Positions 12,414 to 56,353 of a stretch of DNA of 64,000 nucleotides are shown in pieces. Source of the DNA: a virus; IMG/VR virus record IMGVR_UViG_3300045988_037736, positions 32,001-96,000 of that record, one strand, 5' to 3'. How positions within the stretch are numbered: the first letter of the stretch is position 1; the number at the start of each line of letters is the position of its first letter. Position numbers and translations under genes: made by a program. Below the pieces are notes generated by a model, which searched no databases, was not told where the DNA came from, and saw only the letters and a list, made by a program, of their open reading frames with translations.

Positions 12414-15104
12414 TTAGAATGTTAAACCTCTTTTCTTTCTTTTAATCTTACCACCATAAGCTTCCTTTTGAACAGGAGCATAAACTCCATGTCTACTAGC
12501 CCATGTTCTCCATTTTCTATCAACTTTCTCCCTACCAATATCTCCAAGAGAACTGAAGATGTTTGATAAGTTATCAGAGATAGCTTGTTCTCTTGCAAGT
12601 CTAGCTCTTGACCTTATATCAGCAGCAGCCATTGTACCTCTTAATGAGAAGTCTCTAGCTCTTGATAATGCTTCTTGGTTGGCTATATCAGCTTGCAGGA
12701 ATCCTTGGGAGTTCTGAATATTTGTACCTCTATTGAACTCTTCAACTTGATTCCTTTGAGCAAGGTTATATTCTTCAGCCTGTCTTGCTAAAGCACCAAG
12801 CTGGTTTAGATAGTTATTATCAGCAGCAAGAATGCCTGCCATTGCAGTGGCTCTGTTACCTCCTGAAGTATTTAGTAGAGACCTTCTTGAGGCACCTGCC
12901 TCTGCATTCATCTTGTTAATGTAGTAATCCCTATCAAATGGTCTATAAGTTAGGTAGTTACCAATAGGTCTATACCTTACAGGTCTGTAAGCACCTTTAC
13001 CACTGCTTGCTTCAAGTATGGCTGAGACATCACCATCATCAGGCTTTGTAAACAATGAAGTTCCAAGACCTATGGCAGAGCCTAAGATAGGCATATACCT
13101 CATCCAATTATCATAGTTGGGGTATTCACCTCCATTATCAGTAAGGTCAGGGGCTTTCTCATCAGTAGGAGCTACAGCAGGTCTTTCCTTATAGAATAGG
13201 TCTGTATAATCTGTATCTCCTTCACTACTTGTTCCTGTCCTTACATACTGATATGTTCCAGTTGTTGGGTCATAGTCAGGAATAAGTAGGTCTTCCAAAG
13301 GAGTGCCACTAGCATCTGTTCTTCCTGTAAGATACATCCTCTTACCAGTCTTTCTTGGAGCTACTGGAACTGGACTACCTGCAAGGTCTATTCCTGCGTG
13401 CATACCACCCCAACTCTTGTCAGCTGTCCTTGAAGAGAAGATGTCTTTGGTAAGACCCTCTAGAGTAAGAGGCACATATCCTCTTCTTCCTTCATTATAC
13501 CTATTAACTGATTCAACATACCTAGGTAGCCATTGATTTACCTCATCACTTCCCCAGTTATTGATGACATAGTTCCTTCTTGTCATAAATGGAGAGTTAT
13601 CTCCATACATAATATCCCAGTCAATAGAGCCATTTGACTTATAGGGATTGAATCCTTCTTGACCAAAAGTAAGACCTGGAGTAGAGTTATTATAATTGAG
13701 AGTCTGCATCCAGCTACCTGTTTCATACAGGTGACCTCCTCTCGCAAACTTTCTCTCTTCTTTTCTTTCCCTTACCTGCTCCTGTACTTCCATCAACTTA
13801 GACATGCTGTCTATCATTCCTGCCCTACTTATAGGGTCATTAGGCCTCTCTTCAGATTCTTTGCTCATTTGAATAGCAGCATCTGCAAAGGTGAGAGGTT
13901 TTGTTCCTCTTAGTTTATATTTCTTTCTTACTGCTTTTGGAACTCTTAGTCTGTTACTAAATACATAATCATTGAAGATAACTTCTCCCTCTTCTACAAG
14001 GTTAGGAATGCCTTCAGCATCCATTCCCATAGGAACTCCTTCATTAGGGTTTTCTTCATGTGTACCTCCATTACCCACAAGAACAAGTCCTGTATCAAAG
14101 TCAGCTCCATGTGTCATAAGGTCTCCTCCAAAGGCATGATGCCACTTAGCAGCGTTCTAAGCAAATATAGCTCTCTTTCTAGTTAAAGGATTTTTACTAT
14201 GGGTTAATTCCTCTGTAGTCTTTCCTGTTCTCTTCTTAGTAGCATTGAACTTACCTCTATTCTCTGGGTTAATATGTATTCCTCCACCTTCTGCAAAGTA
14301 CAATGGACCTCCATATGAGGCTATGTTTCTAAGTATATCCCTCTTCCTAGTCTATCCTATATTATACTGTGCATTTTCTAAAGAAGAACTAACATATTGC
14401 CTAGCAGTATCAGCTCTTTTGCTCATATCCTAATATAAATCATCTATATCATGACTAAATGCACCCTAACTGCCTAAATCATCATGATTAAAGTATCCAA
14501 CTGTTGGAGCAGTAGCCATCTCCTAAGCTAAAGCATCATAATCAGTAGCACTTGATTTAAACTGTCCAGCCTGGGATATTTGATTATTTAAAGAACTTAT
14601 AAGTTTTTCATTTCTTTCAGAACCAAATAAGTTATTAGTAACTCCTCCAAGTAGCTAACTTGCTCCCATTACTATACCCCCAACCATTGGGTTTACAGAC
14701 ATTAAGGCTCCACCTACAGTTGAGCCTATACTACTAATTCCATTTCCTACTGCACTAGACCTTTTTCCTCCAATTACATTACCTACAATTGAACCAGTTA
14801 AGGCACTTCCTAGTCCTATACCCTGTTTGCCCAATTGAGTAAGTCCTAAGGATGGATTAGTAGTTCCAGATGGTGGAAGAGGAAGGGTTGCTGAAGCAGC
14901 AGTTGGTTGAGTAGTTTTAGTAAGAGCTTGCAGCCCTGTTGATATAGCTTCTCCAGGCATAGTTTCTCTAATACCAGGCATAGAAAAAGCATCATCCATA
15001 CCTGGTATTCCAGCTAGATAATCAGGAGTACCTCCCCATGCAAAATAATTATTCCTCCCAAAAAGGAGTTTATTTGTTCTTTTTTTAATAAGTTTCTTTG
15101 CCAT
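12414..15104 (-). CDS. hypothetical protein ~896 aa, read through 6 in-frame TAG codons (all in the N-terminal third). C-terminal 567 aa is the TAG-free ORF 12414-14117.
   Basis: ORFs 14655-15104 and 12414-14117 are in the same frame. The intervening 540 nt translate cleanly if TAG is sense (TAGs at 14655, 14523, 14466, 14430, 14352, 14157). TAA stop at 12414. Confidence 0.55.
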
Positions 15105-15170
15105 CTAAATGAATTTTGTATGCAAATGTAGCAAAAATATCCCACTAATACAATAGTATAATACAATTAA

Positions 15171-15204
15171 TTAAAAAGGTGTAAGGTTTTTCTTACACCT
15201 TTTT
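15171..15204 (-). terminator. hairpin (AAAAGGTGTAAG / CTTACACCTTTT) immediately downstream of the giant recoded gene
   Basis: Perfect 12-bp inverted repeat 3 nt after the TAA at 15207. Flanked by A/T runs. Confidence 0.45.
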
Positions 15205-15206
15205 AA

Positions 15207-18200
15207 TTACATAGAGTACTTAGTAGATACATTATATATTGTCACTCTCTAGTTTTTATGTGAGGCACTCCCTAGAGTTATTTCACTCCATGGATTTCTA
15301 ATCCTTGCCCTACCATAGTGCCTTATAACATCTTTACCATCTTGTGCTACATAAGGAGACCTAGGAATATTAATCCTCCATATATTAAACTTCTTCCTTA
15401 TATCTCTACTATTAGTGAGGTCAGTATAAGCTTTCTAATAGTCATTCTCTGCTTGGATAAAATCAAATGGCTTATCAGAATTATCCTTTTGGTCAAAGTT
15501 CCGTACTTCAGCATTAACTTCCACTGTGTCAAAAATTTTTGTGTAAGGAGAATTACCATTAGATATATAAGTGAAACTAAATGGTTTAAAGTTACCATAG
15601 AACTCATTATATACCCCAGTGAAGTTCTCCCATAGCCTAACTTTATCCTATTCCTATTTTATAGAGTAAAAACCACCTTCAAAGTCAAACATACCTTCAG
15701 TTTCACCATAACTTAAAAAGGAAGTGAACTAGTTAAGCTTAGTTGAGAAACATAAAGCTTCTTCGCCATGAGCTGGAGAGAAATATACATCCCCATTCAT
15801 ATTATCAACAAAGCTTCTTACTCCCATTCCTGTAGGAGTCCACTCTGATAAGTCAACATCATTCTTAACCCACTAACTCATTCCTGAAAGCTCACTTACA
15901 TTTACTAATTCCTAACCATATCTATAAATACTTTTGGACTCGTTATCTATGAAGAATAGACCTGTTGAGGTAGGAATAATAGACCATTTATTAGCACATC
16001 CAATAGTAGAGGATAGAATCCTGAACCCATCTACTCTGTTTGAATTTCCTATCTCAATAGGTACTCCGTCTGTAGGATTGAGCTATACTCTAGAATTAAA
16101 CATAATCTAGCTAATAGATTTTTCCTAGAAGCCAATAAGAGTATCATTGATGGAGGTTAGACATGTTACAGACCCTTTATCAGCAGGAAGGTCTAAGGTA
16201 CTAGCTAAAGTGACATTAGTCCATGGGTCAATTATAGACTAGGGATTTTTCTTTAAGGACCATGCTACCTAGTAAGGAAATGTATCTATTTTATAATAGT
16301 CCTTGTCTAGTGTTCTGTAGTTAAAGAAGTTATCTAACTAAGAGTATACTTCATTTATCTTATAAGAGTCAGGAGTAATGTCGAAGTTGGATAGCTGCCC
16401 TCTTTTAGTATCGTATCTTCCATCAAGATTAATATGTGACTCAAGCATAAATGAACCTATTTCTACTATCTAATTAGTATCATCATCTGCAAAAGGATAA
16501 GTCTTTACACAATCATATCTTGTACACCATGTATCCCCATAGGCATAAGGAATCGTAATTATCTTATGTGGAGTTGATACAAGAGGAACTGACTCACTAC
16601 TTGGAACCCATAAGTTATTTTTGATAGCTTCATCCGATTTACCTCCAAACCTAGTGTCTGGGTCAACCCACTATGTTAATTCAGCTATAGGTAATGTGGG
16701 GGAATAATCTTTATCCTCTTCAAGTAACTACAGAGTGCTATTCTGGATGGTAAACGTATTATCTGTATTATCTGTAGATGGCTCTGAATACATTTTATAA
16801 GATGTAATACCAACTATATTTCCGAGAGATACCTTTAAGTTTAATAATACCTAATCCCCAAGATACTAAAAGTTATCATGACCATCCTGTAAGTTTTCAA
16901 AAGGACCCCATTTTATTGGCCCCGCATTCTGAAGAACTCCTACCCACTCACCATTTACATAGTGATGATAGATTATACATCCTTTCTTCACTAAAACAGT
17001 CACTTTAGTTCCTGAGTTTTGTACCTGCCAATACCCTACTTCTCCTATCTTTACCCTTTTAACCAATACACGCTTAGCTATGGGTCCAATGTAAGCCATT
17101 ACAATCTGATAGGTTCCTAGAGCAGTCACACTTGTATCGTCAACATCTAGTACTAAGTTCCCCTCTTTGTTATAAGTCCCATAAAAGGTTTTTGAGCCTA
17201 TAAATGAAAGGATAGGATATGAAGTACTGGTAGAAGTATTATTCTCCCATCCAGAGGGGGTATACTATGAAGTTATAGTCTCACCAGTAACAGAAGTGTA
17301 TGGTAGTACTGGAATAACCTTAGGGTTATCCTCATCATATAAAGAGAATACTAAGTGAGGAGATGATTTATACTTCATTCTTACTGACTCCCCAGAAGTA
17401 GGTACATTAGTAGGGGATACTTGTGAAATACTATCATCAGTACCAGCATAAATAGGATAAGCTGATGTGGCTGATACAATATCATCTACATTTCCAAAGT
17501 ATAGTACATCCTAGTCTAAATGTGGAACACGAACAGTTAAGCCTGTAACCTCTTTAGAAGAGAATAACTTAGGAGTTGTAATTTTAATATTGTGGTTATT
17601 AGAGTTAAAAAAAGTTGACTTACTTTCAAAATACTTTAAATTGGAAATAATCTTCCATTTTAGTATAGCTGTTCTATTTCCGGATTTCTCTATAATCTCA
17701 GGAGACCTGACAATATCATTATTTAGTGAGCCTGTTCTATGCCAAGGATAAACTAAATATTTAACAATACCTGTCTTATCATCATCTAAAAAATCCCCTC
17801 TTAGTATTTTATCTTCAAAACAACATGATGATACAAATCCTCCATTAACAGTAGTATTAGGAGTAGTACAGTTCACTGGAAATCCTACAGGATGATGTAT
17901 AAATCCTCCAGCCTGAGAACTAGCTTTAGAGGTCACTGCTAAATCTATATCTCCATACAATCCATGTAGGCTAGCGGCTCCAACAATATTTAGCCTTGCT
18001 CCTTCTAATTGAGTAGTATTTATATAGGACCCATACTCAATTTCTGGGGAATGTAAAGTAACTAAGTTACTATCAACAGCAAAAGTTGAATAATGAGACT
18101 TTATACCATCAGAGGGAGAAATAATTTCCTATATTGACTTATTGGAATCTCCTGGCAGAGATGACTATATTTCAGCACTTCTATTACCTCCACTGAAAAG

Positions 18201-19955
18201 TGTATAATTATGTTTATACTAAATAGTCGACCCCTAATCTATCGAGGTAGAGGTTTCTTTTGGCTTTCCATCTACATATACAGGAGATGGCCTAAAGAAC
18301 CAAGATGACATTGCATATGGGTTATTCATGTGCCTTCCTCTCACACTGTAGACAGTAGGATTTAAAACTCCCTAACATATAATATTTCTCTCCGCTGGCT
18401 TAGGGAAAACAACACAAGTTCTAGCCCTTCTTACTCCAGCTTTTAATAATGAGGCAGTTGCATTAGGGAATAACTAAAGTTCCTTAGTATCCACCCCGTC
18501 AGTAGTGCCCCAAAAATATGAATTATTTAACTCTACATCAAGAAAACCATCACCATCACCATCACTATTCCTTATGACTTTGTTTAATGGAATAGGTTCT
18601 GACCATTCTCCAGTCTTAAACTAAAATTGAACTCCTAATCTATATGTTTCTCCTGCCTTAAAATGACCAGGCTTAAACTATGGTAGATAAGGATAGTATT
18701 TATTTATACCCTAATTATCATAAGTATCTTCGGCTAAAAAACAATCTGTTAACCCTAAAGAGTCCCCATTTTCAGCCTCTTCCTATTGAAGTAATGTAGT
18801 TAGTTCTTTAGTATTTTTCTGAACAGTAATGTTTCCATAAAACATCACTCCTTCTTTGCTAGTGATAGTTCCAGCTAATATTGTTTGTCCCCCAGTATAT
18901 AATAGTTTAGCAGGGTCTTCTATTGAACCAGTAAGACCAGTATCTGTATATTCAATTGTTTTTACCAGCTAATCCTCAGAACCAAACACATCATACCAGT
19001 ATTCTCCTTCAGCACTTTCCTCCTAGCAATCTTTTAAGTCTAAGTCAGCTACAATCTTAACTGTAGGCTATGCGTCTAGTGAAGTTCTATGTATAGAATA
19101 AACCCTTATATAATCAAAGTTATCAACATTTTCTACTTTAATTGTGAAAGAAGTTATAACCTTCTCTTCTGGATTACCAGCTCTATCATAATTCCTTATA
19201 TACTATATGGGAGATACATAGAATATGTTACTTTCTTGCCCATACTTATTAAAGTATGTAAGAGCATATTGAATTACTCCAGGAGAAAATTCTCCATGAC
19301 TGGAACTTCTACCTACCAGTACTCTTTCTTTTAACTATAGGTTCTATACAAAATCAAATGGAGACTCAGCTCTGTATATCCAATTTCCTTTTTCATACCA
19401 CTTTTCTAGATTTTCTATAACTTCCTAGGAAACTCCCTCACTTTTCTATGGATTTGAGAAATTAACTCCGTCTACTATAACTTTACTAGCTATATCTTCA
19501 GGAAGTTTCAACTCTGGGGCAGTTATATTAATAACTCTAGGCTGGTTAATTCCATCTGTCCAATACAACTTATTCACAAGAACTGACTCACTATCCCCTA
19601 ATATTTCTAGAGGGTGATTAGCATCAAGACCTAGCACTCCTTCAAATAGAGTAACTTTAATCCACTCCCCTTTATCTTCATGGAGTCTATATATTCTAGA
19701 TACTTCCTGAGTGTCATTCTAACTTACAGTAAATACTACTAAGTATCTATTAAGCACACAATGTCCTACGTACTACCCATCAAAAACAACACCAGTGTCC
19801 GTATTTCCCTTCTCATTAGTGATAGAAAACCCAGTATCACTATCCCTATTAGTAAGTCTCACATTTAAAGCATCCCATAAAAAAGACTCATCTTGTCTTG
19901 ATGGGTGAACATCTCTCCTTAGGCCTTTAAATATATGATTATCTGAATACATCAT
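15207..19955 (-). CDS. giant (~1582 codons) tail-fibre/tail-like protein encoded with dozens of in-frame TAG codons
   Basis: Five tracked minus ORFs in this span (ending at 16866, 17511, 19446 and 19773, plus the start MMYSD at 19955) share one frame. Each ends in CTA (=TAG on the minus strand). The first TAA in that frame is at 15207-15209. No other frame has ORFs >=60 aa across 5.7 kb. Confidence 0.55.
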
Positions 19956-20664: not shown

Positions 20665-21185
20665 ATCTTAAAAGCATCAAAGTTACCACTTTTAATTCTT
20701 TGCTTCAATCTCCTTTTAAGGTCTCTGTTCACTACAAATTCATAGAGGGATTTATTGTTGTAGTCTGCATCAATCCTGTTATAGTAGACCTTGAAGATTT
20801 CTTTTTCCTCCATTTTAATGAGTGTTCTTTCCTTATAGGCTTCCTCATCTTCTGACCATAGTTTAAGTGTTCTATCCCAGTCAATAGGAAGATTAGTCTT
20901 TACCTTTCCCTTCTCAACTGAGATTCTTACATCATACTTCCTTATCTCTATAGTACCCATTCCACATGGTAACTTTATATCATGGCCATGTATAAGTGAC
21001 TCGGCAAGAAGATTATTTATCCTTCTTATAATAGAGTAGAACTGATGTTCTGTAATAGGCTGTCCTATATCAAACCATTTGTTCTTTCTGATATACTTGT
21101 AGGCATCATATACTCCATATGAGTTATTCACTCTATAGACTCTTGACTCACTTACTTTAAGTACCTTCTTTCTGAACTCCTCCAT
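20661..21185 (-). CDS. hypothetical protein 174 aa
   Basis: Clean ORF, TGA stop. Confidence 0.6.
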   Translation of the reverse strand: MEEFRKKVLKVSESRVYRVNNSYGVYDAYKYIRKNKWFDIGQPITEHQFYSIIRRINNLLAESLIHGHDIKLPCGMGTIEIRKYDVRISVEKGKVKTNLPIDWDRTLKLWSEDEEAYKERTLIKMEEKEIFKVYYNRIDADYNNKSLYEFVVNRDLKRRLKQRIKSGNFDAFKI

Positions 21186-21864
21186 ATTTGAACTTGTATC
21201 CTCTGCAAAGCTTACCAGTCCTGCAACACTTACTTAACCATGATTTATCTACTCCTAGAGCTAAGGCTGCTTCTGTAGCTGATTTGTACACAGCTAGTAC
21301 TTCTCCCTCCCTATCAAGCATTTGTACAATCTTAGACATTGGTGAGTTCTCAGATATTTTCAACCTTTCACACATAGGTCTTTTCCTACCAAGATTTACT
21401 TGTCTAAGACATTCCTTTTGTTTCTCACTCATTTTCCATCCAGAACCTCTAGATGATTTTCCTCTATGGGCTATACTCAACTTCTTCTTATGAGATTCTG
21501 TAAGAGTACATCCCCTTCTCTTATTGGATTTTTCATAAGGAATCTTAATTCCTTTATTCCATGGGACATTCCCTGTGCATCCCTCCCCTCCATCTGTAAT
21601 ATTGAGACTAATCCCTAAATTCTTGTAATAGGCTATATATTGTTTCTCTCTATTTATAGCGTCTTGTTCTGTCATTCCAGTATAAAGTATTTCATGAGTT
21701 ATATTGTCCCATCCATACTTTATTATACTATTCTTAAATGGAGAGTTCTTACAATTAAAATACCCTTTACCATTATTCCATCTATGAAGAGGATTTTGGC
21801 TAGTTATGCCTATATATACTTTGCCAGATGGAGTAGTATGTTTATACAAACAATATTCTTTCAT
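21157..21864 (-). CDS. GIY-YIG homing endonuclease
   Basis: N-terminal YxxxxPSGKVYIGIT...R...H motif with a basic C-terminal DNA-binding region. Confidence 0.75.
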   Translation of the reverse strand: MKEYCLYKHTTPSGKVYIGITSQNPLHRWNNGKGYFNCKNSPFKNSIIKYGWDNITHEILYTGMTEQDAINREKQYIAYYKNLGISLNITDGGEGCTGNVPWNKGIKIPYEKSNKRRGCTLTESHKKKLSIAHRGKSSRGSGWKMSEKQKECLRQVNLGRKRPMCERLKISENSPMSKIVQMLDREGEVLAVYKSATEAALALGVDKSWLSKCCRTGKLCRGYKFKYGGVQKEGT

Positions 21865-22617: not shown

Positions 22618-23286
22618 TTAACTACTATATTTCCATATAAACCCGCCAGAGGTTTTGTGCTCCCCATTTAGGCATTTATACAAGGAAGCTTCAGCTATAC
22701 CAGTACATAAACTAGCTTCCTTAACTGAAGGAAAGGACTGTATCAACTCTTCTTCTAAAGAAAACTGTAGTACGCCCTTTATGGTTTTAGCCTTTATTAT
22801 CTTATCAGACCAAGTACAGGGTCTTCCTTTCAGAGACTTACTGATATTATTTCTCCATTCTTCTGTAAGCTTTACTCCCCTACGAACTAATGATAGCTTC
22901 TTTTTAACCTCATCAGTTCTCTTCTTTCCTCTGTTAGCTATAGAAATTCTATTTTTGGACTCTGTAGAAAATTTGTAGCCAACGGTGGAGTCCCCTCCTA
23001 TTGTGCAATTATATCCATGCACATAAGAGTTATATAGTCCTATGTAATATACTTCCAGCTTGTCAAGTTCTTCTTTAGCCTGCTTTTTAGAACTAAATAT
23101 TCTCTTTTCTAAAACTTCATATTTGAAGGACTCCAAACCATATTTAATTCTAGCCCTATTTATTTTAATTCCAGCATATGGCCCGACAGTGTTCCAATGC
23201 TCCCTTCGTATTTTCTCGTTAGTAGTCTGACCTATGTAAGATTTTCCACTTGGAGAAACATATCTATATATAACACCTTCAACCAT
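22618..23286 (-). CDS. GIY-YIG homing endonuclease (paralog)
   Basis: GVIYRYVSPSGKSYIGQT motif. Confidence 0.75.
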   Translation of the reverse strand: MVEGVIYRYVSPSGKSYIGQTTNEKIRREHWNTVGPYAGIKINRARIKYGLESFKYEVLEKRIFSSKKQAKEELDKLEVYYIGLYNSYVHGYNCTIGGDSTVGYKFSTESKNRISIANRGKKRTDEVKKKLSLVRRGVKLTEEWRNNISKSLKGRPCTWSDKIIKAKTIKGVLQFSLEEELIQSFPSVKEASLCTGIAEASLYKCLNGEHKTSGGFIWKYSS

Positions 23287-25906: not shown

Positions 25907-26700
25907 TTATCTACTTTGAGTTACAATACCCATATTAGTCTGTGATGTCTGACCAAGAGCAACCTGTGAAGTAAGGTCTCCAATATAAGCAGCCTTAGCT
26001 AGCTCACAAGCTCTTTGAATAATCTCTGGAAATAGTATTGGGTCAAGCTCACAACATTCCTCACTACTCTCACCTCCTATAGTAAGACCGTCAAATGTAC
26101 TTAGTCTAATAGCTTTAGGACGTCTAACAAATCTATAGGTATAACTAATTAAGGAATCCTAATATCCTAAAATTAATTCAACTTTCTTTCTATTACTGTC
26201 AGAAATAAGCAATCTCCAAGCTTGGTTTTTTAGAGGATATTTGTAAGGTTTGCTAGTGAGTCTATTATACTCCAAGTAACTAATAGGGATAACAGTTAAT
26301 CCAGTTTCGTTATTACCTCTCTAAACTGTAACATACTCGTTGATAAACATGAATATATCATCTTGAAGGATGATACTTTTACTGCTTTTTCTATTGTCAA
26401 AGTGTGCATCTAAAAAAGAGTCTGCATCTGCTATTGTACGGTCTCTCATGAGCATAGAGAAATCAATCTACCTTATCTCACTTCCGTCAAAACCTTCTTG
26501 AGACTTATTAGTTTTTGGACTAAAATAAGCTTTTACTACTTCATCTTGAGCCTTAGTTAGAAATACAGACTTCTCATATTCATCCAAACCAGGAGCCTGA
26601 TTACTTGTAATGCTGTTGTAAATTATATCAAACTCATTACTAAATTCCTAATTTCTTATTCTTCTTTCTTCCGCAGTCATAAGGTTTTCAATTTGCGACA
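25907..26700 (-). CDS. hypothetical protein ~263 aa encoded with 4 in-frame TAG codons
   Basis: No tracked ORF here. Manual translation from the ATG at 26700 (MSQIENLMTAEERRIRN...) runs cleanly to the TAA at 25907 if TAG is read as sense. Confidence 0.5.
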
Positions 26701-26719
26701 TGTAACTTAAAGATTAAAG

Positions 26720-36311: not shown

Positions 36312-36412
36312 AGTTGAAGTAATGTCATAGAATGTACTCTGTGAATTAAGGTACAGGAGCTAGTTCTATACTTCATCAAAAAACTTTTCACCTAAATATT
36401 TGAGATTCATAT

Positions 36413-37516: not shown

Positions 37517-37523
37517 ATCTACA

Positions 37524-39274: not shown

Positions 39275-41673
39275 TACTTACTAGTATTTGGTTTCTTATT
39301 AATCTATTTTCTTTTGAGTTCAGCATCAGTTTGAGCTTTCTTCTTATCAAAGGCTAACCTTTCTCTGTCAAGTTTGAGCCTCTCATCAAACTCTCTCATC
39401 TTTTCAAACAGATTAGCTCTTGCCTCTTCAGAAAACTCCTGCTCTTGGATGCCATCTTCCTGACTTTGAGAACCTATACCTGCTATAAGTATCTTAGTCT
39501 CATTATCTCTCTGATTCATTGTATCTTTGAGCTGCATTTCAGCTTCCCTTATCTGAGCTTCCATCTGAGCCTATTGTTGCTGAGCCTGTAATTGCTGCTG
39601 TTGAGCTTCCTGCTGTCTTTGCATAAGCTCCTGTTCATTCTTCTCAACCATTCTCTGTTTTTCAGCAAGAGAAGAGCTATTATAGAGCTTCATGATAGTG
39701 GAGAAGGTAAGAGTCTGATTCTGCAAAGCTGCCTGAGCAAGCATATCCATCTTCTGCTGTAACTCCTGTAGTCCATTACTATTATCTACAACAAGGCCAT
39801 AATCATTTTCAGAGAACTCATCTCCATCTATGTCCATAACCTTACTTGAATTATCAGAAAGAATATACTGGAACTTCTTACTTCTGCCTCTTAAAGCTAT
39901 CTTAGCTGTTTCAAGGAATGCCTCAAGAACCCTCTTCTTTACATCATCATGTATGATAAAGAGCCATTCAGTTATATGAGAAGATTGTAAGGTAGCTCTT
40001 TCGACACCACCAACAGTCTCTCTATTACTTATCTGACCTTCTCTTTGCCTAGAAATACCAGCCACATCAGACATTTCCATCTTGATAAACTCAAGAAGAT
40101 TGGTATATTGCTGTATAGTATTACCAAGTTCAGCATTGACAACTCCAGAACTTGCATTGTTAAGAGCACCTGCAAGCTTACCTGTAGCAGCACCAATATT
40201 GCCTTCCTTAAAACTATCTGTAACTACAATACCATTAGTCTTAGCAAAGTACATCCATTTCTCTATCTCCCATCCTTTAGGAACCTTAGCAAGGTCAAGG
40301 TTAATAAGCATACCCCAGTTTCTTGAGATTAGCTTGTTGAGCCTATCATGAATTGTATCATAGAGATAGTTATAGGGCTTCATCATATCAACAAGAGAGA
40401 AAGGCTTGTTGTCATTAAGGTTATAGATAGAACCTATAATACCAAAATGGCACCTTGAAGGATTGGATAGTCTGTTATACTGAACTACTCTAGGTCTCAT
40501 GTTGACATAGATGTCATTACCTATCTTTGTCCCTTCCCAGGCTTCATTGATATATAATATCTTTTCCTCCTCACCTTTGTCCTTATCTATAACGTAAGTT
40601 TCTGGGTAGAGATTAAATACCTCTTCACCTGTCTGAGGGTCGTAAGACTTAACTTTCTTAATTCTCCTTCTTGATTTCCAGTAAACTCTAAGTACCCTTA
40701 TATTTCCTGCAACATCAAAAGGAAGAAGTGAAGTGCCTACACCATCTGTCATTCCTATGGGGTCCCAGAAGAAACCTTCCTGAGAAGTAAATTCTTCCCC
40801 TATCATGTGCCCATTTACAAACCCCATTCTATCATCTATGTTATCCATAGAGTCAGTTACTTGGTCTGTGTTATTGGGCATCTTTTCTATGTACTCCATG
40901 TCCTTTTTGGTAAGGACATCATAATAAGTGTCTATGATTTTACCAGGACTCCAATAGTCCTCAAGTACAATCATATCAGCATCCTCAATCCTGTTACTAT
41001 ATCCTGACTTGAATACTCTGACTTTAAGAGGATTTAGTCTTTCTATGATAGGTTCACCACCTACAATATCACATTGGTAAATCTCTTCACCTACTGCCAT
41101 TGCATCAGTGAAACCTTGATTAAAGAGGAAGGGGAAGTTGAGTTCCTTGGAATAGTGGTTAAGGAGAGCATTAGCTCTCACTTCTCTCATATCTTGCCAC
41201 TCAAATGTAAAGAAGTCATTGAGCTTCTCTAGCTCTGCATTGAACTCTTCCTCTGACTGAGTCTCTTCAGATAACAGTTGCTGTACTCTTGCAAGTAGTT
41301 CCTGCTTCTTGTTGTTCTCTATTTCAGAGATAGCATTTGGATTAGTTACAACTACCCTATAGTCAAATACTCTCTTGGACTCTTCTCCCCTAAGAACATT
41401 TAATTTACTATTCATTATAGGGTAATGCTGAATCCTTTCAGGTATGTAACCTGCCTTTATATTATCAGGGTTCAATACCATTGCAAGGTCACTCATGTGA
41501 AGCCTACCATTAAGTAAATCATAGTTGATTTTCTTATGTATCACACTCTTCCTTACCAAAGAATAGTTGAAAAATGTCTTAGAGTCAGCCCAGTCAAGGT
41601 GCTTCTTTCTCCAAGCCTTATTCTTTCTGGAGAATGGCAGTTGTTGTGGGGGTAAATTTGTGAAATCACTCAT
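39274..41673 (-). CDS. portal protein candidate (~799 aa; ORFs 39571-41673 + 39304-39564 + tail joined through 2 TAG)
   Basis: 700-aa ORF immediately downstream of the terminase. First TAG sits inside a poly-Gln run (QQQQLQAQQQ-TAG-AQMEAQ). True TAA at 39274-39276. Confidence 0.5.
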
Positions 41674-41773: not shown

Positions 41774-44700
41774 TTACTGTATATACCCTTGGGAGTAATT
41801 CCTTTGGAAGAAAGAATCATTGCCTAAGTATGAACTACTGACTTCCTCCTGTGCCTTAGCATTAAGATTATCTCTATACAGTATAATCTTCTCTTGTCTA
41901 TACAGCATAACCATACCTAATGCCCTGATTCTATCCACATTAAGTTCAGGAGTGTAGGAAATTAACTCTTCAAGTAATGCTCTATTTCTTAGAGAATAGA
42001 GCCTTGGAATATTGACCTCTTTCTCTTCTCCATCCTCCTTTATTATAGTTGGAACTGGCTGAAGTAGCCAATCCCTTATCAGGTTATTAGCATAATTGTT
42101 GATAGTAGCATTCGCATTGATACCTTTTGCATTTGAGCCAAAGGCAGAATACTTAATCATCTGTTTGTCTCTTAAATATTCAGGAGTATCTGCCAGTAGG
42201 TGTGTGCATTCCATTCTGCTAAAGTAACCATACAGGCCCTTCTTATTGGATTCATACATGCACTTGGCATTATAGAATAGACACAGCATTCTTACTATCT
42301 CAAAGTTATCATCTGCAAATGCCTGCCTACCAGTGTATTCTGCTACAATTCTGTCAGTAAACAGGTCAAGTACAAAGGTTGAAGAAAGAGAAGAAGACTC
42401 TGCCTAATCATTATCCACAGGGTCATGGCCTATAATATATCTCATATTGAAATCATCCCCATTTGCTTGTTTCTCAGGCATTTCAAATATCTCAATAGCA
42501 CCTACTGTTGAATTGTCAACTCCATACTTTCTGATAGGCACATCATTACCTATTCTAAACTCTACCTTATTACCACTTGCTAGGGCAAGATTACCTATGT
42601 AAACATCATCAAAAGCATGAGGGTCTGAGTCAAGTTGAGCCAATCTCTCAGTAAGAGCTACTGTAGGAAAGTAGGCAGCCTTCACTTTAATGATAGCTTC
42701 AGCTGGTGTAATTGGGTCCTCGGCAATAACTCTTAATACTGACTTAGGGTCAGCAGAATATTTAGCTTTGTGTCTTGCCAACAGAATTTCTATGAGAGCC
42801 TTTGTTACATCAGAAACACCATCCTTGTTGTAACATCCTGCCCTATTTACATAAGAAGGAAAGAAAAATCCAAAGGTAGGCTTTCCTTGCTTAGGTCTGT
42901 CATAGACATTCTCAATAGCCAGAATATTGTAACCATCTGGATTGTAAAGAAGAGTTTTTGCCGAACTGAAGTCTGACTCATCCTCAGCAGCAGTATTATG
43001 AGTTACTATATTGTTAGCCAAGTAGGTATGACTTAATCCAGCAGTTAAATTATATACTTCTTGTTCACCTATCTCTTCTACAGAAGTAACTTTGTGAACT
43101 ATTATATCCTCTGGATATTTTTGAGCCTTCATACTCGGATTGCTATTATAATAGTCCATTATCCTTTTAAGGCAATCTCTCTTGTGCGGAACAAGAAGTT
43201 GAAGCACACCACACACTCTTGTACAATTATGTCTCCCTGATATAGATAGAGTAAACCAAGAATTTCTATCTTTCCTATCAGAACATAGTTTTGGCTTAGT
43301 CTCCACAATAGTGCCAACTACTCCAAATTTTCTCCACAGTACTTTAACTTGCTCTAATATTTTCCTATTGCTTTGAGTTAAAGATATATATCCGTCTCTA
43401 TTAAAGCTTATACTACCATCAGTATCATATAATCCAGATAGCAATAGTGAGGTATCATCTCTTGTAAGAGTCTAATAGTTGATAGGAAGCCTTTTATTGG
43501 ATTTTACTTGCCCCTAAATACCTAATTCTCTTAATTTATTACAAATACCTTTAATTCTTATATCCTCGTATATTTTTCCTTTCTTGGTAATATGAGTAGC
43601 AGATAATGACCATTCATATCTATGCTTTACATAGTCTAAAAGCTCTTTATCCTCAGAACTATACTTGGGGGATTGCCTTAATCCATAAGAACCATCTCCA
43701 ATAAGCATACCTACTAATCTAGGGTCAAACATGGTATCTGTCCCAAATATTGGAACTTCCCTACTCTCTATAATTCTATCTCCTACACTTAAAGCTCCAG
43801 CATTTTTGAATACTTCTTCATAATACCTTATAGACCCATTATGATTCATTCTTTGTTTCTGAGTAAGAATTGGATGGTCTGTAGAGCATCTAAGTTCATT
43901 TCCATTACTCAGTTTAATAAGTACACATGGTTTTTTAGCAATACTTATAGAACTCATTATAGGTTCTTTGGTAATCCCTCTTGTGAGGTGAATATTAGGT
44001 TCAGTACCTGACTCAAAGGAGTCTGTAAATCCTATGATACCATCCTCTCTCTTTAAATCCTCTATATTGATATTCCTGCCATCTAATGTCCATACCTTAG
44101 TACCAGCACATACACAACCTACAAGGTACATTGTAGCAAATGTATAGTCACCATCTTCTACAGACTTTCTTGTGATGTCATACAGGGATAGAAGTCCCTT
44201 AAATGAACCCATCTCCTCGAATAGAATCCAACCTCTCTTACCTCTTAACTTCTCTGAGTCATCCTTTGCAGAAACAGCAAGCACCTGATTCAATGACCCA
44301 CTTTCAATACCAAACTCATCCTTGTAGCCCATCTGCCATGCCATCTCATTAGGAGAGTTCTTTAACATGAGCCTAGGGAATGGAGTATTTTTGAAGGAGA
44401 AGTTAATTCCAGGTTTGAACTTAGAGAGTGTGCCATCCTTACTGTCACTAAGATACTCTTTCTGATAAGCAGTAAGTACAGTAATAACCCTCCTCTTTAC
44501 TTCAGTAGATTCACCAAGTATAAGGTTGTGAGACATTATACTTGCAAGACTATATGACTTTGCACAATTATGAGTAGTTATAAAGTCCCCTACTAAATAA
44601 CAGGAGTCTTTAGAGTCTACAGTAACACATTTACAAGGAGATACCCCAGCATACTCAATATTGACTATGGCAGTTTTGTTCTTTCTTGATAAAGCATTGG

Positions 44701-46180
44701 TGCTACTATAATGTACACCACTCTTCTTCCTTGGCAAATTAAACAGTTCTTCTCCACCATATACTGCTATTTCATAGCAATCAGAGCATTGTATGTAACC
44801 ATTAAAAGCTTTATACCTTGCTCTGCTCTTAGATATCTTGGTGTTATATCCAAGACTTCTAGCTATAAAATCCACATCTTCGATTAGTCTTTTTGAAATA
44901 GAATTTAGTGTAGGTACTCCTCCATGTATAGAGCCATCTGTATCAAATAGCCCTTTTAGGACTTTTAATCTTACATCCCTTGAGTTGTACTTGTATTCTT
45001 CAGGAATAAACTTATCTATAGATTTTGCATTATTCAGTCCATAAGACTGCAGGATACTATTCCAATTAGGAATATGTACTCTATAAGAATATTTACCTGC
45101 CCACTTAGTATATTTGTAGGGAATATAGTTCTTTTCTATATCAAAGTCCTTATCTATTTGGGTAAAATAGCAAGAACCATGCCTAAAGCACCCATCCCCT
45201 AATAGAAGTCCAAATGTATAAGGTTCTACCAGAGTATCTTTATATGGCAAGTTTATTCCTTCATTCCCAGGAATGAAACAGTTATATTCAATACCAGAAG
45301 GAATCCTATAAGAGGGAGTTCTATTAGTCTTGTAATTAGACAATAGCCAAGCTGTATTGACTGTCATATTCTTCCCCTTCCTCTCTATATTCCATAAGTG
45401 GTCATCAGTAGCAAACACCGTTCTGCCATCCCTAAGAGTTATCTTGTAGTAAGGAGAGACTTGGTCGTAAGGTATATCTATAACAGTACAGACAGAATTA
45501 TCTGTAGCATATAATTTATCTCCTATCTTAATATCCTTCCACAGCTTCCATCCTTCTGGGGTAAACACCTTCTGGAAATAGGGGTGAGCACCCCTCTTTG
45601 CAAGTTCTATGGCATGTTTACCAGCCTCTCTTGCTTGATGAAGATAGTGAAATCTCCAATAGATTCCTTCAAAGAAGAAGGGGAAAGACTCAACTCTGAC
45701 AGCTTTCCTTGTGCCAGAAATTACCTTATTTACCATCATGGGACAGTAATTAAGAAACCAATAAAGGAATCCTGTGACCCATTCTCCATCACTCTCCCTT
45801 ACATAACCCTCTCTACATCTCCTCATCTCCTCATCCCAGTGCTTTCTGTATTCACTGTTAGGATTAGAATTTGGTCTTAGAAAAGTATAGCAGCCATGCT
45901 TCATAAAGTGTAAGGCTGGTTGTCTGAAATAATCCATATCCTCAAGTATATGAGGATTGGCAAGGTCTACTATAATCCTTCCTTGCTCATCTCTTGGTCT
46001 ATCCTTAGCATATACCCTATTAGGAGAGATAAGTCTTTTTATAAGTTCTACACTATTTATAGTGTCCAATAACTCCTCCTTGACCTCCTCAGGTAAAGAC
46101 CCAAGGAGTTCATCAGTCAAGGGGGTCTGGTACTCATTCATTTCAATAGCCGAGGTATTCTCCATAGATAATATCTTCAA
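41774..46180 (-). CDS. terL: terminase large subunit interrupted by two inteins, each carrying a LAGLIDADG homing endonuclease. 3 in-frame TAG (two inside intein 2, one in the C-terminal extein).
   Basis: Three same-frame ORFs (43514-46180, 42404-43444, 41774-42289) are separated only by CTA (=TAG). Intein 1 runs ...AHPYFQKVFTPEGW...ATDDHLW...LLLGDGCF...LKGLFDTDGSI...VGDFITTHN|C. Intein 2 runs CVCAGTKVWTLDG...STDHPILT...LVGMLIGDGSY...LSGLYDTDGSI...NNIVTHN|T. C-terminal nuclease motif YIIGHDPVDND. Walker-B-like ILFEEMG. Confidence 0.65.
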
Positions 46181-46556: not shown

Positions 46557-47064
46557 CTCTTACCTTATTGCTCTGAGCAATTTCCTTGGCAATAGCTGCT
46601 TCAGCTTCATTCAAATCTTTCACAAGAGTAGGAATCTGCTTGATAGTTGCAGTGATAGTATTGAGAGTATAGATAGGTTTACCCTTATCATCAAGGGCAC
46701 CAAGGTCTATTTCCCTCAATAGAGTCCTCAGCTTATCAACTGCCACTCTGGTATCTTCAAGAAGTAATGCAGATGCTGGCTTGAAAGTCTTATAGAACTC
46801 CATTGCCTCAAGTACAAGGTTATCAGGCTCCCAGTCATTAGGTAAGCCTTCACCTTCCTTAATAGAAGCCTTCCTACTTTCCTCATCTATAATGTACTGA
46901 TAGTCACTTCTTGGGTCAGCCATAAAATATATGTAGGAAATCTCGGCTATTGCTCTATTTTTGTTTGCAGACCTGTCCCTGTTCCATATCTTCTTAAAAG
47001 GAGTTAATGCTAAAGCTTCAGGAGATATGATTACCTTATAACCTTCAAATTTAAGTAGTTTCAT
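46522..47064 (-). CDS. hypothetical protein ~180 aa (internal start MKLLKFEG preferred over the tracked start at 47160)
   Basis: The tracked N-terminus overlaps the GIY-YIG gene by 110 nt. The internal ATG removes the overlap. Confidence 0.5.
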   Translation of the reverse strand: MKLLKFEGYKVIISPEALALTPFKKIWNRDRSANKNRAIAEISYIYFMADPRSDYQYIIDEESRKASIKEGEGLPNDWEPDNLVLEAMEFYKTFKPASALLLEDTRVAVDKLRTLLREIDLGALDDKGKPIYTLNTITATIKQIPTLVKDLNEAEAAIAKEIAQSNKVRGAQEKAMYEDL

Positions 47065-47716
47065 TTTTATATTTCCATTTATAACCTCCAGCTGATGGTC
47101 TTTTACCTCTAGCACATCTTGATATGTGAGTCTCCAAAACTCCAGTATCTCTAGCTGCATCAGCTATTGATGGGTATGTACAAATTATATTTCCTTCTTT
47201 ATCACATTTAACTATTTCAATTAAGTCATGATAACTGTGATTAAGTCTCATCTTAAGCTTAGCCTCTTCAGACTTAGGCTTTCCTTGTAAGGATAAACTT
47301 ATCTTTAATTTATGCTCTATTGTGAGAGGAACACCTTTGAATCTGGAACTTACTAAGAGCTTAACATGCTCAGGTATCTTTTTACCTTTGCCTTTAACAC
47401 TCATTTTTCTTCTAGTCTCTTCAGAATGCCTATATCCAAGAGACCCTTCCCCGCCATCAGTTATATTATAAGATATGCCTAGCTCCTTATATTCTTTAAT
47501 TAAGGTTATCTCTAACAGATTAGCTTCCTCTTTAGTTAGTCCTTCTTTTATTATATCATGCTTAAAGTTATCCCACCCATACTTTTCTATGGCTCTCTTA
47601 AAGATACCTGTTTTGTATCCTCTCCCCTCTTTCCATCTCTTTCCCACATTAAAAGAGGTCTGACCTATGTAGACCTTGCCATTAACTTTATTGGTGTGTT
47701 TATATACTGTGTACAT
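47051..47716 (-). CDS. GIY-YIG homing endonuclease (third copy)
   Basis: MYTVYKHTNKVNGKVYIGQT motif. Confidence 0.75.
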   Translation of the reverse strand: MYTVYKHTNKVNGKVYIGQTSFNVGKRWKEGRGYKTGIFKRAIEKYGWDNFKHDIIKEGLTKEEANLLEITLIKEYKELGISYNITDGGEGSLGYRHSEETRRKMSVKGKGKKIPEHVKLLVSSRFKGVPLTIEHKLKISLSLQGKPKSEEAKLKMRLNHSYHDLIEIVKCDKEGNIICTYPSIADAARDTGVLETHISRCARGKRPSAGGYKWKYKNETT

Positions 47717-50313: not shown

Positions 50314-50385
50314 TTAAAGTTAGTCGCCCCACTCTGGCTCGAACAGAGACCAAAGGATTTAGAGTCCTCTGTGCTAACCATTACA
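50314..50385 (-). tRNA. amber suppressor tRNA-Sup (anticodon CTA), built on the tRNA-Gln scaffold
   Basis: TGCCTCA-TG-GTGT-AATGGTTA-GCAC-A-GAGGA-CTCTAAA-TCCTT-TGGT-CTCTG-TTCGAGC-CAGAG-TGGGGCG-A. Anticodon 34-36 = CTA with U33/A37. Positions 8-26 are 18/19 identical to tRNA-Gln(TTG) at 54395-54466. Confidence 0.75.
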
Positions 50386-50890
50386 CCATGAGGCAATATT
50401 TTATTAACAATGCAAAGGTATGAAAAATAATTTAAATTACCAAATAAATTGATAATAAATTTTTAATAAAAGTGTAAATAAAATGGAGATAATATAGCAT
50501 AAGCTACGGTCATATACCAAGATTGATTAGACTCCAGGTCTACACTAGCAGTTCTTTCTTTTTGAACACCAAGAGAATATAATAAATTGTGAGTTCTCCA
50601 TTCATTAAGTAAGCTAAACATAGTTCTGTTATTAATAGAACTGTATGGGTAAAATCTAGCTTTTAAATGAATGAGAAACTACTTCATATCAGATAATGAA
50701 GTGATTTTATAGGAATCATAAATAGCTATATTATTATCAGATATGTCTACTTGATATTTCTGTTTATTATACTAAACTGTGTATTTCATACTTTTACAAA
50801 TAGTAAAGGGGTTATGATAACATGAATTACGCCACCTGAATATTTACAGTAAAACTCAATGTTATATAAATACTTAATTTCTTATTTCAG

Positions 50891-52736: not shown

Positions 52737-53213
52737 TTATTTTCTTTTGTTTTTACCTGCGTATGTACTTGTCTGTGAATGACAGTTAGGGCATAAGAAT
52801 CTTAAATTCTCTAATCTATGGTCATTATTTATACCATTTATGTGGTCTAGATGTAGAGATAGTGGCTGACCATTCCACGAGGATATACCACATTTACTGC
52901 ATTCATATTTTAGCAACTTATTGTCTATAAGCCTTCTTTTAAGTGAAGCTATATTAGCATAGCTACTATTCTTTACTAGTATGTTCTCAATGGGATATAC
53001 TTGCGTTGGAGATTTTATGCTTACATCTCCAAAGTGAGATGTTGAACATCCTAGTTCTTGGATTCTTCTTTTCAAGACATCTTGTGAAGAATCCCCTTTA
53101 GTAGTTAGTCCTAATGCTCTCAGGGTATCAGAGTAACTATTAACTCTATTTATTAAATTTATAAACTCCTTATCAGAGATACTATATACTTTACTTGTAC
53201 CTTTTCTTCTCAT
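52737..53213 (-). CDS. HNH homing endonuclease
   Basis: C-terminal HLDHINGINNDHRLENLRFLCPNCHSQ motif. Paralog of the plus-strand HNH at 61700-62116. Confidence 0.8.
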   Translation of the reverse strand: MRRKGTSKVYSISDKEFINLINRVNSYSDTLRALGLTTKGDSSQDVLKRRIQELGCSTSHFGDVSIKSPTQVYPIENILVKNSSYANIASLKRRLIDNKLLKYECSKCGISSWNGQPLSLHLDHINGINNDHRLENLRFLCPNCHSQTSTYAGKNKRK

Positions 53214-54162: not shown

Positions 54163-54170
54163 ATATATTG

Positions 54171-54318: not shown

Positions 54319-54390
54319 AACAAGTTTGTACTCCCTGTAAGACTCGAACTTACAACTTAGGGCTTAGAAGACCCTTGTTCTTCCATTGAA
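54319..54390 (-). tRNA. tRNA-Arg (TCT)
   Basis: T-arm GTAAG-TTCGAGT-CTTAC. Anticodon arm AGGGT-CTTCTAA-GCCCT. Confidence 0.7.
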
Positions 54391-54394
54391 CTAA

Positions 54395-54466
54395 GGGAGC
54401 ATAGTTGCCACTAAAGGACTTGAACCCTTACACTCAGAACCAAAATCTGATGTGCTGACCATTACA
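54395..54466 (-). tRNA. tRNA-Gln (TTG)
   Basis: TGCCACT-TG-GTGT-AATGGTCA-GCAC-A-TCAGA-TTTTGGT-TCTGA-GTGT-AAGGG-TTCAAGT-CCTTT-AGTGGCA-A. Same architecture as the CTA suppressor. Confidence 0.75.
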
Positions 54467-54701
54467 CCAAGTGGCAATGTTCTCTTGAATTACAGTGCAA
54501 AGTTAGGTAAAATTTTTGATATATGCAAATTTTTAGACAGAAAAAAAAGGAGAATCACCACACTCGACGCGTCGGGTACAGGTGGCACGTTCTCCTTCTC
54601 TTTTTTTTTTATTTTGTTAAAATTTTGTGTTGGCTTATGTTTTTTATAAAATACCTGCGAAAATCCTCCTGAGAGACAGGAGTCTATCTGCTTTTATAGG
54701 C

Positions 54702-55283
54702 CTAGTTAACAACATAGGTATTTCTAGTAAATAGATACTTAGCATGTTGTATTACCCCATTATCTACTTCATAACGGCCTCCATTAGCTGGGACCTCTCC
54801 AACATAGACTTCTTTATTCTTAATAATTGCCTGGCGAATGCTTTGAAGATAAGTAGGTCCTATAGAACCTGCTATCACAGTTCCATCTACATAACACATT
54901 TCTTCAGCTAGGAAGGTTCTAACCTAATTATCTATATTTTTTATTTTAAAGTTAGCTTTCCACCTCCATTCTCTGAATGACCCATCTAATAAAGATTTCT
55001 ACTCCTCAAGTTCCTCTTTCTGTGTAAACGCAGGAAGAAATTCTAAGTTTGCATCTAGAATATGATAATCGTCTGTATTAGCAGTTAATTTAATTAAACC
55101 AAGAATTCCTCTAGATTTTTGGCGTATTATAGATGGAATATAATTGGCTGTATATAGGTCCTCGACAAACGCATCCTTAGTTATTATATTAAGGACGTCT
55201 TGTATATTATGTATTTTATTTAATTCTTGCAACTCCAGCAAATGGGAGTTGTCGACTGTTCTTAATCTCGTAAGAACAGCCAC
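54702..55283 (-). CDS. hypothetical protein ~193 aa (ORFs 54999-55283 + 54702-54899 joined through 2 TAG)
   Basis: Same frame. CTA at 54999-55001 and 54924-54926. No TAA/TGA in the 100-nt linker. Confidence 0.5.
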
Positions 55284-55337
55284 TTCTTCCTCATCGAGGG
55301 AGTAGTCTCCCCAAAAAGGAAATGAAAATAAAAAATA

Positions 55338-55643
55338 CTATATATTTTTTCCATTTCTTTTTAATGGTGGAGCGTCTATAACTATGGTATACGCAGTGTC
55401 AGTAGGTACCATGTTTCCTGGGTTCATATGACATGAGAAATTAGCCCAATAAACCTCTAAATAATCTTTAGGTGCAGGTTTATTACTTTCAGGAGTTAAT
55501 AACACAAGTTTACCATTATCACTTCTCTCATATAACTCAACTTCATTCCCAACTTCTTTTACAAGTATTTCATCTTTGGTAACTAGATTAGGGTCTCCCG
55601 ACACTAATCTCTTACCTAGTATAGTCTCTTTTCTAGTTTTCAT
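55338..55643 (-). CDS. hypothetical protein 101 aa
   Basis: ORF. Confidence 0.5.
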   Translation of the reverse strand: MKTRKETILGKRLVSGDPNLVTKDEILVKEVGNEVELYERSDNGKLVLLTPESNKPAPKDYLEVYWANFSCHMNPGNMVPTDTAYTIVIDAPPLKRNGKNI

Positions 55644-55774
55644 TTATTCTTATATATAATGCAAAGTTACATAATAGCCATGATGTATCCAATAGGCTAA
55701 GTGTTTTTTTTTAGCTTATATAATAAAATAATTTATCTATGGCTTTTATATTACCATAGATAAATTATCACACT

Positions 55775-56353
55775 TTATACCATTCCAATAAAATCAATCA
55801 ACATCCAATCCTTACTATCTCTATGCTTTTCTAGATTCTTCTTATTGAAGAACCTTGCATATAGCCAAGGCCACCAATCATCTAGTACTGTACCAGTCAT
55901 GGAGGAGATTTTCTGAACAAGCTCTATATCATCTAGTTCAAACTTATATAACTGAACCCAATCAAATTTTCTTCTTCCGCAGAAAAATTTAATATGGGTA
56001 TATGTCTCAGCCCATCTCTTACAATCATTAATAAACAGTCTTTCTTTATCTTCCCTGTTCTTAGTATTCTTTGACACTTCTAGAATTAATCTTACATAGA
56101 TAGCTCTATTACGACTATTCAAATATTTAAATACTCCTTCTACATCTCCTTCAAATGCCATAGAGCCATGTCTAAATTCAGCTTCTCCATACTTATTATA
56201 AGAGACTCTTATATCAAACATTCTAGCACCTAGCTTGTACTAATGGTCTATATGTCTACTTTGACATTTAGCTATGAAGTGAAAAGGTCTCATCCACCAT
56301 CTTTTAGGTTTGAGATAAGACATTGAATTATGCGTGCCCAGTTTCATATTATA
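55775..56353 (-). CDS. hypothetical protein ~192 aa with one in-frame TAG (N-terminal MKLGTHNSMSYLKPKRWW... extension of ORF 55775-56221)
   Basis: In-frame continuous translation from the ATG at 56353 through one TAG. Confidence 0.45.

Follow-up and report, generated by a model that had tools for sequence, protein, structure and literature searches.

The late genes of the phage behind IMG/VR virus record IMGVR_UViG_3300045988_037736 appear to read the codon TAG as glutamine (Gln) rather than as a stop. In the stretch that we analysed (hereafter the window: 64,000 nucleotides, positions 32,001 to 96,000 of the record, numbered here from its first letter), we consider it highly probable that a code-15-type reassignment of TAG to Gln is in use, served by a suppressor tRNA of the phage's own, and that the uneven use of TAG from gene to gene is mainly a matter of module ancestry. 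Both parts of this reading are drawn from sequence comparison.

Open reading frames (ORFs) of the window are syntenic, gene for gene, with gp1-gp49 of Bacteroides phage crAss001 (tblastn against crAss001 and bajarodcaudo virus 1), and the portal and terL region matches crAss-like phages at 75–77% nucleotide identity (megablast of 36-56 kb against GenBank phages, with matches to bajarodcaudo virus 1, cr116_1, cr128_1 and crAss001). Amino acid identity to crAss001 lies at 40–78% across the signature genes, with the major capsid protein (MCP) at 78%, the portal at 70% and the terL exteins at 74–80%. From about 58 kb downwards the minus strand carries small genes, a 21-gene tRNA array (54476-49757), further small genes and terL, followed by the portal, fibre genes, lysis-region genes, a gp31-like gene and MCP, and then by ring and tail-hub proteins, the muzzle (gp44), cargo genes (gp45, gp46) and a 2390-amino-acid RNAP-like protein (gp47). 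From this synteny we infer that the window represents the structural/late half of the genome of a Steigviridae-like (beta-group) crAss-like phage. Its signature genes and their order are those of Crassvirales, and the family is assigned on best hits. The lineage consists of the window and a sibling contig, IMG/VR UViG_3300045988_064014 (L007), and no INPHARED record matches it at high identity.

Stop-to-stop ORFs of at least 100 amino acids were called on the minus strand between 12414 and 56353 under four stop-codon rules. Their coverage of this range is 0.591 under code 11 and rises to 0.873 when TAG is read through, compared with 0.604 for readthrough of TGA and 0.703 for TAA, whilst on the non-coding plus strand TAG gives the smallest of the three gains; the effect is therefore specific to both codon and strand. 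In total, 95 in-frame TAG codons are spread over 18 minus-strand genes, where the original prediction had counted at least 16 genes continuous only through TAG; 17 of the 18 lie within the range of 12414-56353 that it had given and one (58453-58791) just outside. All 49 genes listed in the window terminate with TAA (41) or TGA (8), and the eight TGA ends together with the coverage of 0.604 bear out the earlier statement that TGA is not read through. Frames interrupted by TAG alone extend to as many as 1,582 codons, in tblastn comparisons with crAss001 and bajarodcaudo virus 1 the alignments cross about 49 TAG positions without a break, and the bridged ORFs match single full-length homologues, including the portal (799 amino acids, 806 in crAss001), terL, the muzzle and others. 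On coding density, on homology across the former stops and on the tRNA described below, every refutation test proposed with the original prediction that was run favoured recoding. Two other leads were set aside. Group I introns gave no Rfam hits at the gathering threshold as a cause of the split genes, the terL interruptions being inteins. The absence of TAG as a terminator (0 of 49 window genes) is not significant, because late-gene orthologues in standard-code relatives end in TAG in only 38 of 838 cases, and depletion of TAG terminators in the TAG-free genes was accordingly dropped as a signal.

The TAG codons are distributed very unequally. The plus-strand genes at both ends of the window have none, and every TAG-bearing gene lies in the co-directional structural/late module, where the following genes carry them:

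12414-15104, minus strand: cargo-1 (gp45-like) gene, 6 TAG
15207-19955, minus strand: muzzle gene, crAss001 gp44 homologue (Pfam crAss_MUZ), 40 TAG among 62 Gln codons (65%)
25907-26701, minus strand: ring protein paralogue (gp34-like), 4 TAG among 15 Gln codons
26720-27715, minus strand: gp33-like gene, 1 TAG at codon 176 (homologues: 11 Gln, 2 Glu)
29321-30475, minus strand: gp31-like gene, 1 TAG at codon 303 (Gln in 33 of 33 homologues; CAA in the sibling)
34859-35284, minus strand: putative lipoprotein/transmembrane spanin-like gene, 1 TAG
35358-36416, minus strand: gene of the tail-fibre/head-fibre region, 7 TAG, no Pfam or PHROG match
36413-37516, minus strand: gene of the same region, 11 TAG
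37524-38318, minus strand: gene of the same region, 4 TAG
38315-39274, minus strand: gene of the same region, 3 TAG
39274-41673, minus strand: portal, 799 amino acids, 2 TAG among 50 Gln codons (codons 701 and 790)
41774-46165, minus strand: terL with two inteins, 3 TAG among 35 Gln codons
50463-50789, minus strand: small ORF of 108 amino acids adjoining the suppressor tRNA, 27% GC, 2 TAG
54609-55643, minus strand: gene upstream of the tRNA array, 5 TAG among 14 Gln codons

These genes stand beside others that are free of TAG:

85-3768, plus strand: gp49-like gene (tblastn), TAG-free
3826-10998, minus strand: RNAP-like 2390-amino-acid gene, 0 TAG among 133 Gln codons
3826-12410, minus strand: RNAP-like and cargo-2 genes taken as a block, 0 TAG among 166 Gln codons (cargo-2: 0 of 33)
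27778-29292, minus strand: MCP gene, 0 TAG among 23 Gln codons
51079-51678, minus strand: N-acetylmuramoyl-L-alanine amidase, likely the endolysin (Pfam Amidase_2 and PG_binding_1), within the tRNA array, 0 TAG among 9 Gln codons

The genes first put forward as examples of TAG bridging thus hold 6 (cargo-1), 40 (muzzle), 4 (ring paralogue), 11, 4 and 3 (the three fibre-region genes across 36413-39274), 2 (portal) and 3 (terL) such codons, and the freedom from TAG, with TAA or TGA ends, that had been noted for the 2390-amino-acid gene, the plus-strand gene at 85-3768, the capsid gene and most small genes was likewise found. In the muzzle, which carries PF25731/PF25729 and has a 99%-identical match (P0001), Gln would make up 3.9% of residues if TAG is counted as Gln and 1.4% otherwise. 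All six cargo-1 codons fall in ORF codons 160-326 (numbered from 15134; window positions of at least 14157). In the four fibre-region genes (35358-39274), which are without close standard-code homologues, TAG accounts for 25–58% of Gln codons, and several TAG-rich genes, including 54609-55643 and 35358-36416, gave no Pfam or PHROG matches. The lysis-region genes hold 0-1 TAG, with none among the 4 Gln codons of a holin-like gp28 homologue. In the same region the gene of a membrane protein with four transmembrane segments (33616-34029, minus strand) has TAG as its penultimate codon, one codon on from which comes TGA; this TAG is either the stop or a one-residue extension, and orthologues terminate with TGA or TAA.

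A cognate tRNA is encoded within the array, together with its closest relative in the window:

50323-50395, minus strand: amber suppressor tRNA, anticodon CUA (ARAGORN; 55 bits on the Rfam tRNA model)
54404-54476, minus strand: tRNA-Gln(UUG), 67% overall identity to the suppressor

The tRNA claimed at the outset is therefore real, although it had been placed about 10 nucleotides off (50314-50385). It folds as a standard cloverleaf with a canonical 7-nucleotide anticodon loop, C-U-CUA-A-A, and shares with tRNA-Gln(UUG) a U1-G2-C3-C4 start, the D-arm TGGTGTAATGGTYAGCACA and A73. Its positions 1-26 match phage tRNA-Gln(UUG) types (24 of 26 against a tRNA-Gln of relative L109), whilst the T-arm differs, a likeness that would support, rather than decide, a tRNA-Gln scaffold. 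Relative to L040, the nearest standard-code relative (portal 96% identical), the suppressor and the 108-amino-acid ORF form an insertion of about 0.5 kb (50323-50789) between tRNA-Leu(UAG) and tRNA-Thr(UGU), at which site L040 has a 46%-identical ORF and no tRNA. The suppressor is 100% identical in the sibling, the sole match by blastn among 118 loci, and a pattern scan of IMG/VR for the anticodon arm and T-loop returned nine further tRNAs with a CUA anticodon, of at most 77% identity, and no suppressor donor.

The evidence that TAG use follows ancestry comes from IMG/VR relatives, fetched for the regions surrounding the cargo-1 gene and the portal. The sibling is 97–100% identical in nucleotide sequence across 14.0-51.7 kb and keeps all 40 muzzle TAG codons, both in the portal and four of the five in the terL reading frame, the fifth being CAG. 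Among the 80 nearest portal relatives, as seen in loci of about 22 kb, the suppressor was found in the sibling only; relatives with portals 90–96% identical have no TAG in portal or terL, no suppressor and 19-22 ordinary tRNAs, and two more distant lineages among the portal relatives are recoded (L082/L083 and L106). The backbone genes are 80–96% identical to standard-code relatives. Over the 29 genes that have 5 or more Gln codons, the share of TAG falls as identity to the best standard-code relative rises (Spearman rho -0.76, p=1.5e-6): genes at least 60% identical to such relatives use TAG for 16 of 431 Gln codons (3.7%), and more divergent genes (<60% identity) for 77 of 192 (40%; Fisher p~1e-29).

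A second line of evidence is a crossover at about 13800-13900, inside the cargo-1 gene, where identity to the sibling falls from 100% on the right to no DNA similarity on the left and GC content shifts from 0.40 to 0.36. Left of 13.8-13.9 kb the window is instead 82–92% identical in nucleotide sequence to a standard-code contig, UViG_3300045988_031323. All six cargo-1 TAG codons fall to the right, where the window resembles the sibling. From these alignments, the TAG-free RNAP/cargo block (to the left of about 13.8 kb) is therefore best taken to be a module of different ancestry. Apart from the sibling contig, which alone was found when IMG/VR was scanned for a donor of the muzzle allele, the nearest muzzle alleles in a large protein database (50–53% identity) belong to two deeply recoded Logan contigs:

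ERR11478026_3444 (L130): deeply TAG-recoded relative
SRR17244096_355 (L131): deeply TAG-recoded relative

In these two contigs TAG makes up 28–30% of Gln codons overall, 46–56% in the muzzle and 26–28% in the RNAP-like gene, and their cargo genes also carry TAG. Their MCP genes are TAG-free nevertheless (0 of 20 and 0 of 18 Gln codons), and so are their Ring-2 and tail-hub A genes. The MCP gene of the second contig is split by an HNH endonuclease insertion.

The explanation that we favour runs as follows. A phage tRNA with a CUA anticodon on a tRNA-Gln scaffold, presumably charged by the host GlnRS, would compete with host RF1, so that UAG is read as glutamine, with TAA (mostly) and TGA terminating every gene. 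From the comparative data we infer that the backbone genes have been under code 15 only briefly and are starting to gain TAG (the 3.7% of their Gln codons), that the hypervariable muzzle, the cargo-1 N-terminus and the tail-fibre cassettes, with their pooled 40% TAG and without close standard-code counterparts, probably belong to a long-recoded gene pool, and that the left RNAP/cargo block was probably swapped as a module with a standard-code lineage. In addition to ancestry, gene-specific selection probably keeps the capsid gene free of TAG, which it lacks (0/23, 0/20, 0/18) even where 28–30% of Gln codons are TAG.

A different reading of the same distribution, which we hold to be possible though doubtful, is that it is an adaptive timing device, in which translation of late and lysis genes is blocked until the suppressor builds up and the TAG-free genes are those needed earlier. 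A published model based on many genomes stands behind it (Yutin 2021, PMC7886860; Borges preprint, 10.1101/2021.08.26.457843), and it agrees with the confinement of all TAG-bearing genes to the late module, with the TAG-free plus-strand genes at the ends, with the position of the suppressor in a tRNA array upstream of terL, and with the single TAG in the spanin-like gene at 34859-35284. Genes free of TAG and genes rich in it are intermixed within this one late module, however; late virion components such as MCP, ring proteins, cargo-2 and the RNAP-like gene stand at zero, and so do the amidase endolysin and the holin-like gp28 homologue, unlike the lysis bias described in the preprint. Module ancestry, on the other hand, predicts TAG density very well, and the density changes exactly at the recombination crossover; we rate timing as a secondary, non-exclusive factor beside ancestry.

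The crossover itself could be an artefact, the TAG-free left block and the remainder being an assembly chimera of two co-occurring phages. The switch lies in a conserved stretch in which the lineages are 85–90% similar, and assemblers can cross over in such places. We think this unlikely, as the junction is in frame inside one gene, these phages often exchange modules, and the left block is just 82–92% identical to the nearest known contig and so is not simply that phage; a chimera would in any case leave the recoding conclusion untouched.

The residue inserted at TAG is best supported as Gln by several comparisons. In alignments to two reference phages (crAss001 and bajarodcaudo virus 1), 27 of the 88 cells aligned with TAG hold Gln (31%; background 3.6%), an enrichment of about 8.5-fold, and no other residue is enriched. 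Among standard-code relatives of at least 50% identity, Gln is in the majority at 9 of 20 coding TAG positions. In L040 both portal positions (TAG701 and TAG790) are CAG. Of the three TAG codons in terL, two lie in the second intein and one in the C-extein motif DPVDND-TAG-AESS, where crAss001 has Gln; the C-extein TAG is CAG in L040, L041 and L043. The relatives with CAG at the portal and terL positions are 90–96% identical. Between the window and its 97–100% identical sibling, TAG is swapped with both CAA and CAG. The +4 base shows no difference between TAG and CAA/CAG (chi-square p=0.64), and the TAG positions common to the muzzle genes of the window and the two Logan contigs are no more than random placement among Gln sites would give. 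Without a +4 bias and with positional overlap at random level, TAG behaves, as far as these comparisons go, as an ordinary third, synonymous Gln codon whose positions turn over freely against CAA and CAG. Shared muzzle positions, which had been considered as a sign of ancient common recoding, were rejected as such on the same overlap.

That UAG is decoded as another residue (pyrrolysine, Glu, Ser or Tyr) is very improbable. In its favour, Glu is in the majority at 3 of the 20 positions, a few positions of the muzzle conserve Ser, Thr or Gly, and ARAGORN labels the tRNA 'Pyl'. This label, however, is the program's default name for any tRNA with a CUA anticodon. Only Gln is enriched opposite TAG, the corresponding codons in the closest relatives are CAG or CAA, and the tRNA folds into a standard cloverleaf, scores 55 bits on the general tRNA model and is of Gln type in its acceptor and D-arm. 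No pyl or aminoacyl-tRNA synthetase domains were found in the proteins scanned, which took in only part of the small ORFs. In other crAss-like phages, metaproteomic results stated in PMC9523058 also read TAG as Gln. The view that the TAG codons are true stops, in fragmented pseudogenes of a decaying or misassembled phage, accounts for genes being split under code 11 and has next to no probability left, effectively refuted by the retention of 40 muzzle, both portal and four of five terL-frame TAG codons in an independently assembled sibling, by open frames of up to 1,582 codons, by homology across TAG and by the cognate suppressor tRNA.

Several points weigh against recoding to Gln with uneven TAG use set mainly by module ancestry. 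The relatives are known from loci of about 22 kb, and a suppressor elsewhere in their genomes is possible. The sibling's RNAP-like gene has only 4 TAG among 108 Gln codons, so that in lacking TAG the exchanged block departs only modestly from what it replaced. IMG/VR yielded no donor for either the TAG-rich cassettes or the suppressor, import from a long-recoded pool is argued from relatives only 50–53% identical, and fast in-situ evolution of host-interaction genes could contribute to the correlation between TAG share and identity. The amino acid is assigned from alignments and tRNA resemblance rather than from this phage's proteins; in overall identity the suppressor reaches just 67–70% with tRNA-Gln, about as it does with some Lys, Arg and Leu tRNAs, which is why its likeness to tRNA-Gln counts as supportive and not decisive and why whole-tRNA identity was discarded as a guide to isotype.

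Apart from TAG, the window carries inteins, a transfer-messenger RNA (tmRNA) and free-standing endonuclease genes:

42995-44116, minus strand: terL intein 2, LAGLIDADG, carrying two TAG
44567-45589, minus strand: terL intein 1, LAGLIDADG, starting with Ala rather than Cys/Ser
62354-62749, plus strand: tmRNA (Rfam RF00023, full-length model; score 70.2 bits, gathering score 47), missed by ARAGORN
21157-21864, 22618-23286, 47051-47716 and 52737-53213, minus strand: homing-endonuclease-like genes, free-standing and TAG-free

The inteins (Pfam Intein_splicing 7.5e-13, LAGLIDADG_3 1e-24, Hom_end 4.8e-8) are inserted precisely when compared with the terL of crAss001, end in THN|C and THN|T, and sit at the P-loop (…AKRG | CAKS…) and after …TMYLVG. 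Neither is present in crAss001 or L040 terL, and L041/L042 appear to have one. The description of terL as TAG-bridged holds for its three TAG codons, but its long frame is owed to two in-frame inteins and not to TAG alone, and two TAG codons upstream of the start, at ORF codons 10 and 23 counted from 46285, probably lie outside the coding sequence. The tmRNA, preceded by two plus-strand tRNA-Arg genes (61270-61344, 61607-61680) and annotated also in the related GenBank records cr106_1 and cr125_1, has an inferred tag frame at 62440-62478, AEVDETPVRMAA, followed by TAA. Because it occupies the region, the minus-strand TAG-containing 'ORFs' at 62019-63460 are probably spurious; a link to amber suppression, through the rescue of read-through ribosomes, is speculation. 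Three of the four homing-endonuclease-like genes are homologues of the crAss001 'group I intron endonuclease' gp18/gp37 and the fourth is of HNH type, and they are dispersed among structural and tRNA genes.

The recoding itself is an already published phenomenon. TAG to Gln recoding of late genes with suppressor tRNAs has been described for Beta, Delta and Zeta crAss-like phages, together with code switches at short phylogenetic distance, and the timing model, by which late and lysis genes carrying TAG would be translated only once the suppressor has become available, goes back to the same study and to a preprint (PMC7886860; bioRxiv 10.1101/2021.08.26.457843). Our phage is of the same order and apparently the same group as those of Yutin 2021 (PMC7886860), shares with them late-gene recoding, a suppressor in a large tRNA array and a code that differs between close relatives, and resembles the Delta-group OBYQ01000140 in having a terL that two inteins interrupt and in which exteins and inteins alike contain TAG. 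It differs in that TAG density is tied to identifiable recombination modules and in that its suppressor is without a close IMG/VR homologue beyond the sibling. As in the phages of the Borges preprint (10.1101/2021.08.26.457843), TAG is a sense codon in the structural and lysis region, a suppressor is present and the other genes are compatible with the standard code; there, however, the amidase and spanin are preferentially TAG-rich, whereas here the amidase has no TAG and the muzzle and tail fibres are rich in it. For two crAss-like phages of Peters et al. 2022, metaproteomics is stated to read TAG as Gln (PMC9523058), the same reassignment as the one predicted here from sequence. With crAss001 (Kehishuvirus primarius, MH675552) synteny extends from the tRNA array through RNAP; crAss001, by contrast, uses the standard code, since 13 of its 96 annotated genes end in TAG, and has no annotated suppressor tRNA and no inteins in terL. 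What the present analysis adds, modestly, is the tie of TAG density to module ancestry.

For annotation, this genome needs gene calling with TAG as Gln, as otherwise about one third of the late region is lost and the muzzle, fibres, portal C-terminus and terL are fragmented. More tentatively, and with less confidence than we attach to the ancestry explanation, the genetic code may act as a one-way recombination filter, such that recoding spreads by module capture and not by selection on lysis timing. Host-range cassettes would circulate in a TAG-rich pool, and a standard-code backbone could adopt them only after gaining a suppressor, whilst TAG-free modules could still enter from standard-code phages, as at the 13.8 kb crossover. 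The lineage would then be a freshly "licensed" recombinant, its portal still 96% identical to that of a standard-code phage and its first CAG to TAG changes in place. The phage's family has cultured members that grow on Bacteroides. As a recoded pair nested among standard-code relatives with 90–96% identical portals, the window and its sibling provide a natural comparison in which the early steps of a code change (gain of a suppressor, import of TAG-rich cassettes, the first CAG to TAG changes and avoidance of TAG in the capsid gene) are open to study, and in which the ancestry explanation can be weighed against the published explanation by lysis timing.

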